Of a stretch of DNA of 35,868 nt, positions 30,001 through 33,000 are shown one piece after another. Positions within the stretch are counted from its first letter, which is position 1. Each line of letters opens with the position of its first letter. Source of the stretch: a virus (taxonomy: Duplodnaviria > Heunggongvirae > Uroviricota > Caudoviricetes). The stretch covers positions 1 through 35,868 of IMG/VR virus record IMGVR_UViG_3300029735_000262; one strand, 5' to 3'. Position numbers: made by a program.

Positions 30001-33000
30001 ATGCGTTAGTTTCTCCACAGTCACGACACGCCACGGCGCCCGGAGCTGCACACTCGCGGGCGTCATTACTTTCTGAAATGCAAAAAATTTTGTAGACCAG
30101 TGCTGCATGCTCCTGCAGCTTCGAAATTGAGAGGTACAGCTCGTCGTTAATTGCTGTCTTCTCATGCGGTTCCACTACACCGTCTTCAATTGCTGAACGA
30201 ATCTGTTTTGAATAACTGCCGATCTGTTCAATGACCTCCAGCAGGCGTTGGTTGATATCGGCGTTGTCCACATCCTCGACATCAGGAAGAGACACAAAGA
30301 CGCCATTTGCAGACTGCGCCACAGCGTCAGCAATGAAGTGAGTTCCACCAGCACGTTGCAAAATCATTGCCCATCCCAGCGGGAAAATCTGATCGCCATC
30401 GGCACGAAGGCGGTTAAATAATGCGTTCTCTGTTACATCCAGCCAGTCAGCAGCTTCAGCGTACCCCCCCGGCAACGCTGCGATAGTTTTTCTGACAGCT
30501 TTCACGTACCACTCAGGCTGTTTTTCTACTTTCCAGTGATGCTTACCCACGGTTCACCTCCTGTTCCTGTGGTTTAAACCCATTCTGGTTTTGGCTAGAT
30601 TGAAAACGTGCCGGATAAAGAATCTGCATTTCGCTGACTTCACCCTTAAAAAAATTGGCTAAACGTTCTGCAAGCTCGATAGATGGAATCTGCTCCAGCC
30701 TCTCAATACGACTCAACGTCGCTGGATTGACTTGAACACCCGCAGCAACATGCTGCAAAGTGAAACCATGCGCCTTACGCACATTTCGTAATGGTGATTG
30801 CATACGCCCTCCAAATATTGCGCGTTATGCATGTTATTTCACGCAATTATTTTGCGCAAGTTGATTTGCTTATCACGCAATAAAGAAATGTAATAAACGC
30901 ATGAACATAGGAAACCGAGTCAGACAACTTCGCCAAGCGAAGAACATGAAAATCGCCGATCTCGCTGAAGCGATAGGAGTAGATGCGGCGAACATCTCGC
31001 GCTTAGAAACGGGTAAGCAAAAACAATTTACCGAACAAACACTGAGTAATATTGCCAAGAGCTTAGGTGTTGATATTGCTGATCTCTTTACCTCTGCCCA
31101 CAAAAGTAATACTGTATATAAAAACAGTAATAATGAGGATGTTGCGCAGGTGAAGGATGTGTTCCGTATTGAAATGCTGGATATCAGTGCCAGTGCGGGA
31201 AATGGCCTTATCCAGGGCGGTGATGTCATTGATGTGATTCATGCCATCGAATACAGAACTGATAATGCTGTATCAATGTTCGGCGGACGACCAGCCAATC
31301 ACATCAAAGTTATCAACGTTCGTGGGGACAGTATGTGTCCAACCATTGAGCCAGGAGATCTCATCTTCGTTGATGTCAGCATCAATCAGTTTGATGGTGA
31401 TGGTATATATGTCTTTGGTTTTGATGACAAAATATACGTTAAAAGACTTCAAATGATTCCTGACAAACTGCTGGTGATTTCTGATAACCAGATTTACCGT
31501 GAATGGGGAATTACTAGCGAAAACGAACACCGATTCATGGTCTTTGGAAAGGTCTTAATCAGTCAGTCGCAAACCCTTAAGAGACATAATTAACCTCAAT
31601 ATCCCATCCATCGGCCACCGAAAGGTGGCTTTTTATTACCCATAAATTTGCATATCTCGCAAATATCACTTGCATATCTCGCAATTTAATTTTATCTTTT
31701 GTTCCAGACCAACTACAGGATTACAACAAAATCTGGTTGCAACACGGTGCATGTGTCGTAAGCAGTCAGTAAATGTCAAAAACGAACAGGCAGGACGCCC
31801 ACGAAGTAGCCGCCTGGGGCATATGAAGTCCAGGATGATTCGTTAGCAACAAAAAAGCGCCCTACAGGACGCTTAGCTCTTTAACAATCTGGTCCCCTTC
31901 AACAAGTAACTGATAACTTGAGGAGGTGTGAAATGCACAAAACAGAACCCAAAATCGTCGCGCCTGGCTACACAGATGAGGAAATTTATGAGTGGATGAC
32001 AAAGAAGCTGGCAGCTATAAACCAGCTTCGTGAAGTGCTGTCTTATCGACAGGAAACAATAGACTCCTTAAAAAAACTGGATCAGGAAATCACGGTTTTA
32101 TCACAGGATGTTACTTTAGATATTGTGCAGACAAATTAGGATCCCATTCATTTTCGTCAAAATCATCAAAGTGATGAATTTGTGATCTCCAGTCTCGATA
32201 ATCTAAAAATTTCTGGGCGGTTACGCTTATTTTATCAAGCGTGAGTTCATCCTGAATTGAAAGAAGAAGTTCATCAAATTTCATCTCATTAATCTGCTTT
32301 GGCATCCAGTGATGCTTCATCAGAATAAGGTGAACCAGAGCCTTTTTCCCATTCAACTGATTATAGGGAGTGCCGAATTTCTTCCGGTGCTCATGTAAGA
32401 CAAGGTCCAGAAGAGTAAGTAATGTTGCCCTTGATTCAACTTTGCTTATTTCGACTGATGACACTACCCCACTGATTTCAATGCCCCGATACTTTCCAAC
32501 ATTTTCACAGTGGGATTTGTACAACGTGTAGATATTACCGGACATTTCTTTTCCTTTTGCGTTGTTGGGGATAACCAGATTAACCGAATCCTTGTTGTTG
32601 GGGAATAACCAGGTCCACCTCGCCTGATGTGGCTAAAAGCAGGCACATAACAGCTAAGTATTTTTAACCAGAGAGAATCCTTAGCGTTGTGGTGAATGCG
32701 GCTCAGCGCACGCGGGTTAAGGTTGAGGCTGACAGTCGACCTTCTGTGGATACCCACCCGTCTGGTGTGCAACCTTCGCCAGGCACCGGGAGGCACCCGG
32801 CACCACAACTTTATGCTGTGTGTAGTCCCGGCGGTACCAGTTTGTACCCTTGCTTCCGGCTGGTACCGTCCTTTTTACAAAACAGAGAAGAGCATCACCG
32901 GACGACGGGCTCATAACCCAATCCATCCGGGCGGCTGCCACCGCAGGTGTTCTTCTCTGTTTTGTGGAGAAACTAATCGGCCTTGCAGGGTCGATATGAT

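Follow-up and report, generated by a model that had tools for sequence, protein, structure and literature searches.

How a lambdoid phage without an N protein carries its early-left transcript past terminators and inserted cargo genes has not, to our knowledge, been established, either for SfV, SfII, SfIV, ST64B, mEp237 and ZF40 or for many prophages. The question is raised by a viral sequence of 35,868 nucleotides (nt) (IMG/VR record IMGVR_UViG_3300029735_000262, analysed at its full length and here called the window), a lambdoid prophage of the N-less SfII/SfIV/SfV/mEp460 group. Between its putative early-left promoter, PL, and the first early-left open reading frame (ORF) lies a boxA of the type found in Escherichia coli ribosomal RNA (rrn) operons. 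The reading that we favour, with moderate confidence, is that this boxA, packaged in a two-faced cassette, would load host Nus factors onto the PL transcript against Rho, and that a structured leader RNA just upstream, here called element E, is a candidate RNA acting like the put RNAs of phage HK022. The features concerned are as follows.

31648-31662 and 31670-31684, plus strand: OL operators, two perfect copies of TTGCATATCTCGCAA, overlapping PL
31670-31675 (-35, TTGCAT) and 31693-31698 (-10, TATCTT), 17-nt spacer, plus strand: PL-like promoter, as read from the sequence
31782-31843, plus strand: element E, a 62-nt structured leader RNA recognised by covariation
31851-31874 (stem 31855-31874), minus strand: cassette hairpin and predicted intrinsic terminator, with a U-tract from the A-run at 31851-31856
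31876-31892, plus strand: rrn-type boxA, with the core GCTCTTTA at 31876-31883 and a CTGG flank common to the rrn spacer boxA, T7 and other phages
31933-32139, plus strand: first early-left ORF, 68 amino acids (aa), acidic, phrog_1744 (a family of unknown function), not N-like

The boxA and its recurrence in other phages

The motif GCTCTTTAACAAT is present in the window as one exact copy, at 31876-31888 on the plus strand; the base composition predicts about 0.001 chance copies per window, both strands counted, and about 5 × 10^-6 on the sense strand of a 300-nt leader. All 13 bases agree with the boxA-spacer sequence of rrnG, ugcucuuuaacaauuua (CACugcucuuuaacaauuua). When an E. coli rrn operon 3' of clpB was re-read, its leader (GCCGCTGAGAAAAAGCGAAGCGGCAC-TGCTCTTTAACAATTTATCAG) contained GCTCTTTAACAAT, and the 16S-tRNA-23S spacer of the same operon read TTTGCTCTTTAAAAATCTGGATCAAG, with GCTCTTTAAAAATCTGGAT as the boxA part. 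Over its longer extent, GCTCTTTAACAATCTGG, the window sequence matches the rrn spacer boxA and flank at 16 of 17 positions and the leader boxA at 13 of 13. The boxA of lambda, cgcucuua, is without the extra U (PMC2724277, Table 1) that the window boxA has in the form GCUCUUUA(ACAA). The preliminary description, which had assigned the motif to the ribosomal rather than the lambda type, is thus borne out both by the identity with the rrnG leader and by the extra U. It was right about the placement as well: the boxA lies about 170 nt 3' of the OL/PL repeats and the putative promoter hexamers, on the same strand, lies 45 nt before the start of the 68-aa ORF, and is 5' of the hairpin at 32832-32876. 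In the local fold it is unpaired. We infer a PL promoter at this position, with a plus-strand early-left transcript starting at about 31705; on its sense strand, the motif is, at the level of sequence, a genuine rrn-type boxA.

The extended motif recurs in other phages without the hairpin that precedes it here. In T7, CGCTCTTTAACAATCTGG lies 62 nt after the A3 start, at nt ~812-829 (463-480 of sequence L301, read directly); no boxA is annotated in the GenBank and RefSeq records of T7, and we know of no established function for this sequence either. T7 and many T7-like IMG/VR contigs (L256, L266, L231, L235) carry YGCTCTTTAACAATCTGG(AT) in the early leader, 3' of host-polymerase promoters, and some T7-like contigs have two copies. 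Like the window, T7, which has no N either, carries the extended motif on an early transcript made by the host polymerase; unlike the window, it is a lytic phage and has neither an adjacent hairpin terminator nor E. In the lytic T5-like Providencia phage PR1 (L133) and contig L274, the extended boxA follows E by 11-12 nt. The PR1 copy, CGCTCTTTAAAAAT, is 11 nt after E, and two further boxA copies bring the number in a 5-kb locus to three. The E of PR1 is in the pre-early region (terminal repeat, 2500-2600), just after a strong promoter, and its outer stem, AGGAAC/GUUCCU, is fully compensated. A further type, represented by L232, L243, L257 and L258, has the order GCCGGA-12 nt-TCCGGC-AT-boxA, in which the hairpin is a terminator on neither strand. 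This layout is closer to the boxB-boxA of rrn operons, and it stands between a plus-strand gene and the same convergent cargo gene as is found in E. coli phage PhiR29_1.

The hairpin and the mobile cassette

The window boxA belongs to a cassette of about 45 nt made up of an A-run, the hairpin GCGCCC-loop-GGACGC and TT-N-GCTCTTTAA(C/A)AATCTGG(ATATCC). It was found in at least 120 IMG/VR contigs, nearly always in the sense orientation in PL-type leaders, and also in Klebsiella phage Kp4882-1 and in PhiR29_1. Among the matches listed, N-GCTCTTTAA is invariant in 111 sequence variants, whereas the loop (3-7 nt), the preceding base and the flanks vary; in the cassette variants that carry AAAAATCTGGAT, the identity with the rrn spacer boxA extends to 19 nt. 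Oriented by boxA, the cassette contigs show a repressor-gene terminator and a PL-like promoter upstream, in the same orientation. A 14-mer scan of GTDB gave 5 real occurrences among the 120 matches listed, all in Enterobacterales, the rest being almost all due to chance.

Strand bias was measured at loci found through E alone, so that the count carries no ascertainment on boxA. Within 600 nt downstream of E, 25 boxA cores lay in sense and 3 in antisense, with about 0.9 expected in each. Because the motif is exact, strand-biased and common to the host-polymerase early transcripts of unrelated phages, it is not a chance match and is unlikely to be a passive boundary, and these patterns indicate that it is under selection. 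What appears to be new is that a boxA of the ribosomal type, standing alone, is carried in the early leaders of phages within a cassette whose two directions differ.

The imperfect hairpin that the preliminary description placed before boxA is real: it occupies 31855-31874 and reads AAGCGCCC-TACA-GGACGCTT. The two strands differ in what they encode. On the plus strand, the hairpin has a folding energy of -7.5 kcal/mol, a conserved C.A mismatch and no proper U-tract; on the minus strand it reaches -12.1 kcal/mol, with G.U in place of the mismatch, followed by TTTTTTG. The minus strand presents a GC-rich stem-loop, AAGCGTCCTGTAGGGCGCTT, with a U-tract, TTTTGTTGCT, and the terminator scan calls that strand only. 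Genes converge on it: among the matches listed, the first ORF after the cassette was convergent in 44 of 63 distinct contexts, with its stop 12-30 nt past the motif, and of the E-ascertained loci, 14 of 15 with the cassette and 41 of 70 without it had a minus-strand ORF of at least 80 aa within the following 1.5 kb (p = 0.015). Because the loop varies, the terminator is on the minus strand only and a convergent gene is usual, the hairpin is unlikely to be an analogue of boxB, and we suggest that it serves mainly as a terminator for convergent cargo genes. The description of an rrn-like boxB-boxA order hence needs to be divided: a hairpin does precede boxA, and its free loop of 3-7 nt and minus-strand terminator speak against a boxB. 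The hairpin may still have a role on the plus strand, given that rrn operons likewise place a hairpin 1-2 nt before boxA and that the L232 type does so with an unrelated one.

The asymmetry of the cassette bears on three other explanations. In the first, the boxA would be idle on the plus strand and be kept as part of the 3' untranslated region (UTR) and terminator cassette of the cargo genes, or as a boundary for homologous exchange. That the hairpin is a good terminator on the minus strand only, that convergent genes usually come next and that the cassette is dispensable in close relatives would all suit this explanation, as would the mosaic joints in the E-bearing complete E. coli genomes (n = 1533), which fall at 31844/5, the end of E, and at 31892, the end of boxA and CTGG, and so coincide with the cassette ends. 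A boundary, however, needs no identity of 13-19 nt with the rrn boxA, and the explanation accounts neither for the 25:3 ratio of sense to antisense nor for the sense motif in T7, T7-like and T5-like early leaders and right after E, where there is no terminator hairpin or convergent gene. We consider it unlikely.

The second explanation gives the boxA a negative role, like the Nus-dependent repressive boxA known for suhB: NusB-NusE bound near a weak hairpin and U-rich tract would promote termination or block translation of the first ORF, making the element an attenuator. The plus-strand hairpin with UUAGCUCUUU does look like a terminator, though a weak one, and boxA is 45 nt 5' of the ORF start. 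Yet the scan does not call the plus-strand hairpin, which keeps its C.A mismatch; boxA also occurs without the hairpin and far from start codons; and self-attenuation before recombination and excision genes would be of little use to a phage. An attenuator is, on this evidence, very unlikely.

In the third, the functional strand would be the minus strand: the cargo transcript, at its 3' end (…AUCCAGAUUGUUAAAGAGC, terminator and U6), would yield a 3'-UTR small RNA (sRNA) with a seed complementary to the rrn boxA that disturbs antitermination of host rRNA. A conserved stretch of 20 nt directly 5' of a canonical U-tailed terminator is the usual anatomy of such sRNAs, and complementarity to the rrn leader and spacer boxA follows by construction. 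The sense motif, however, is kept without a minus-strand terminator in T7, in T5-like phages, in L274 and in the L232 type, which makes this explanation extremely improbable.

Element E and the lambda-type alternative

Upstream of the cassette, E folds with a closing stem P1 (31782-31786 with 31839-31843) and a hairpin P3 (31813-31817 with 31830-31834). Almost no variation is seen in its single-stranded segment GGACGCCCACGAAGUAGCC, in the loop GGCAUAUGAA or in the junction GGAUGA. In the alignment of E (A1), RNAalifold gave 9 of 13 pairs with double-sided changes; 96% of the cells are paired, and 126 cells show double changes, where shuffles gave 32 ± 4 and slid controls no more than 25. Run on the window, covariance model R1 found one copy of E (94.9 bits). 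Rfam has no match over E or boxA: the gathering scan of the whole window gave no hits, and the permissive scan only an STnc100-like sRNA and noise. A literature search found no paper containing the sequence of E. E may be a new RNA family.

E is present, unannotated, in 1,533 of 5,426 complete E. coli genomes, and it is kept in phages of E. coli, Shigella, Salmonella (ST64B, SPN3UB), Klebsiella, Citrobacter, Pantoea and Yersinia, in Pectobacterium phage ZF40 and in T5-like Providencia phages. A promoter-like site lies just 5' of E at 53 of 98 distinct loci, as against 2 of 98 in a control region, and the -10 of this promoter ends a median of 14 nt before P1, which would put E normally at the extreme 5' end of the transcript; in the window, where there is extra leader, E starts about 78 nt after the inferred PL start. 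Sense-strand terminators are found downstream of E-bearing leaders, and the counts of these are lower bounds, because the strict terminator finder missed the long-loop sRNA terminator of the window. Given that E stands at the 5' end of PL transcripts without N, next to differing genes, in a T5-like phage too, and upstream of terminators, we suggest that its partner is a host component.

These properties recall the put RNAs of HK022 (putL and putR) and the putL-like RNA of HK639. HK022-type put RNA binds the zinc-binding domain of the beta' subunit of RNA polymerase and suppresses terminators without protein factors. E is likewise a structured RNA near the 5' end of the PL transcript of N-less phages, before terminators, and as in HK639 there is a single, PL-side copy. 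The architectures differ: E has a closing stem around a conserved single-stranded region and one covarying hairpin, whereas put consists of two side-by-side stem-loops. That E acts on RNA polymerase as put does is only a guess, albeit the most economical one. The fuller proposal, that E is a new class of cis-acting, polymerase-modifying antiterminator RNA, analogous to HK022 put and unrelated to it in sequence, with boxA cooperating in some leaders and no phage protein required, is a tentative one that we regard as possible but doubtful.

A lambda-type nut site is the obvious alternative for this position. In this explanation, boxA and an RNA hairpin, either the adjacent one or E as a large 'boxB', would be bound by an unrecognised N-like antiterminator. 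The position is indeed that of nutL in lambda, P22 and phage 21, between PL and the first early-left gene, and these sites contain a boxA, of the consensus type in P22 and phage 21. The long invariant single-stranded stretches of E also resemble a protein-binding site. The window boxA, however, is the rrn consensus with its extra U, and the order of the parts is reversed, with the hairpin 5' of boxA instead of boxA, spacer and boxB; the loop is free in sequence and length, with no conserved GNRA-like loop. The PR operon has no copy of either boxA or E, and no GCTCTTWA, the nutR-type boxA, was found on the minus strand between PR and the Q-like gene, including the region near cro and cII. A downstream 'boxB' candidate, CAAGUAACUGAUAACUUG (31905-31922), was dropped, because it shares bases with the ribosome-binding site of the 68-aa ORF and moves together with this ORF rather than with boxA.

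Nor is there an obvious partner protein. The preliminary description had noted no arginine-rich N-like protein, and this holds: no ORF with an arginine-rich motif was found on the plus strand at 31700-35868, small early-left ORFs included, and nothing matches an N family in PHROG or Pfam. The early-left ORFs fall either into PHROG families without an assigned function or into the yfdP, yfdQ and HD-phosphatase families. E, moreover, is common to lambdoid phages with differing first genes and to a T5-like phage, which points to a host partner. A lambda-type nut site with an N protein is therefore not supported by the sequence comparisons, and we judge it quite improbable. The suggestion that antitermination here is based on host factors or on RNA fares better: the boxA is of the rrn type, N is lacking, and E, overlooked earlier, supplies a concrete RNA candidate, while the functional side of the suggestion remains an interpretation.

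Other sequence modules accompany E in this group. One of them, 'M2' (..UUAACGCGCA..AGGU..AAACGUUCCGCUGGCCGGCGAUAAGGCAAAC..), comes after E in phages of the mEp237 type and, in others, before the hairpin-boxA cassette (mEp237, L006, ~3052-3115; Kp4882-1, L004, ~2955-3000; L405, ~2560-2620; PHB10, L134); in contig L405, E, M2 and the cassette stand one after another. In ST64B-type phages (L130, ~2575-2745; L148, L153), E is followed by a GC-rich segment of about 170 nt, closed by GUCUUCGGGAGGGG...CCCCGCCCGAAGAUAC, which is probably another structured RNA, and in some contigs the boxA cassette lies behind it. By this comparison, the PL leaders of the group look like strings of interchangeable RNA modules.

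The early-left transcript

The remaining features of the locus are listed below.

24654-25016: Q-like late antiterminator
28698-29654, minus strand: O-like replication gene
29999-30550, minus strand: CII-like gene
30543-30803, minus strand: cro
30901-31593, plus strand: cI-type repressor gene (Pfam HTH_3 and Peptidase_S24; PHROG repressor families)
31613-31637, plus strand: intrinsic terminator of the cI transcript, GGCCACCGAAAGGTGGCT followed by TTTTTATT; a terminator in the SfII annotation
32111-32545, minus strand: convergent cargo ORF, 144 aa, phrog_5286 (a family of unknown function)
32656-32879, plus strand: STnc100-like sRNA (Rfam RF02076, permissive scan)
33014-33376, plus strand: yfdP-like gene, early-left, from related-phage annotations
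33442-34266, plus strand: yfdQ/DUF2303 gene, early-left, from related-phage annotations

Shigella phage SfIV and E. coli phage Kati share 98-99% identity with 31778-33400 of the window, and its immunity region matches SfII in sequence comparison. Sites related to the operators are present in the gap between cro and cI, at 30818-30832 and 30866-30880. In the O-like replication protein, SKSDA/SKSDP repeats follow one another (~29200-29400, minus strand); the short direct DNA repeats that encode them are probably origin iterons located within the gene, an arrangement known from lambda O.

Downstream of the boxA, the PL transcript would have to cross the 144-aa cargo ORF in antisense. The 3' ends of this ORF and the 68-aa ORF overlap by 29 nt (32111-32139), and the 68-aa ORF also harbours a second terminator-like hairpin of the minus strand, at 32029-32004. 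The STnc100-like sRNA scores 42.6 bits against RF02076 (gathering score 47; E value 1.8e-7) in a full-length alignment that includes the terminator, and the hairpin at 32832-32876 is this intrinsic terminator; the sRNA is divergent and is also kept in SfV, SfII and Stx phages. An inverted repeat (32877-32901/32941-32965; 25-nt arms, 84% complementary, 39-nt spacer) sits between the sRNA terminator and the yfdP-like gene, as it also does in SfV. Expression of the yfdP-like gene and yfdQ from PL needs read-through of the sRNA terminator.

From this map, the favoured reading would run as follows. On the minus strand, the cassette hairpin and its U-tract would stop transcription of the convergent, prophage-expressed cargo gene short of PL and the immunity region. 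Read from the plus strand, the same hairpin would be weak, owing to its C.A mismatch and poor U-tract, and boxA would follow 2 nt later. After induction, the PL transcript would present in turn E, the weak hairpin, boxA, the 68-aa ORF, about 900 nt of untranslated RNA and, from 33014, the yfdP-like gene. As happens in rrn operons and at CRISPR arrays, host NusB-NusE, joined by NusA, NusG and SuhB, would assemble on the boxA as it emerges, and the polymerase would thereby become resistant to Rho across the roughly 900 nt, mostly untranslated, that hold the cargo antisense, the sRNA, the long hairpins and the inverted repeat. Neither a phage N protein nor a boxB would take part. Reading through the strong intrinsic terminator at 32832-32876 would more likely be the task of E, acting in cis on RNA polymerase.

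Untranslated RNA is a substrate of Rho. In rrn operons, boxA and its spacer suffice against Rho-dependent terminators without N or boxB (PMC2724277), and a stand-alone boxA protects the long untranslated transcripts of CRISPR arrays from Rho (Stringer et al. 2020, PMC7665894). A role in protection from Rho fits the window boxA because it stands at the entry to an untranslated stretch and because boxA counters Rho elsewhere. The CRISPR-array boxA is the nearer parallel in that it, too, stands alone at the entry of a long untranslated transcript, a block to Rho being what we propose here; the window element differs in belonging to a phage early operon and in travelling in a mobile cassette with a convergent terminator. 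With the E. coli rrn signals (boxB-boxA-boxC in the leader and boxA in the spacer, served by NusB, NusE, NusA, NusG, SuhB and S4), the likeness extends beyond the identity in leader and spacer boxA to the hairpin 1-2 nt 5' of boxA and to the lack of need for a phage protein. The window boxA, by contrast, is on a phage mRNA leader and has no boxC-like GU-rich element, and its hairpin is unrelated in sequence to the rrn boxB and would double as a minus-strand terminator.

Several observations weigh against this reading. The closest relatives, SfV and SfII, are without the boxA: homology with them ends at 31846, and a different segment lies beyond. Conservation in related prophages, the check proposed in the preliminary description, accordingly came out mixed, as the motif is absent here from SfV and SfII and is kept elsewhere as a mobile cassette, not by vertical descent. 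Because only about 22% of E-bearing leaders have a boxA within 300 nt, boxA would be an accessory that travels with cargo and not part of a core device. In the window itself, it is a plus-strand ORF that comes first after boxA, the convergent gene being another 220 nt away. When the 157-nt leader is folded to minimum energy, part of boxA pairs with the 3' side of E; this fold is no better than shuffles (z-score -0.5), and the partner of boxA is variable. Covariance model R1 finds no second copy of E in the PR operon that could be an analogue of putR, and a homology between E and put was rejected, since R1 with filters off matches neither HK022 putL/putR nor the HK639 putL-like RNA; the words that E and put share (CGAAC..GGC, GGAUGA) are not colinear. 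The suhB leader boxA reportedly promotes termination, in work attributed to Baniulyte et al. 2017, so the window boxA could act in the reverse sense to the one proposed. Finally, we know of no rrn-type complex that overcomes strong intrinsic terminators, so the intrinsic terminator of the sRNA would need something besides boxA, for which E is the candidate. The rival explanations nonetheless fit the sense occurrences in T7-like and T5-like phages less well than does the loading of host Nus factors by boxA.

The locus thus offers two defined, mutable candidates: a boxA cassette beside a cargo insertion site, and a common, unannotated leader RNA. If the proposed role of the cassette is correct, it would explain how an operon of these phages can accommodate convergent cargo genes that the prophage expresses, and antitermination by a stand-alone boxA would extend from rRNA operons and CRISPR arrays to phage mRNAs. 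If E acts as suggested, it would be a second family of self-acting antiterminator RNAs.

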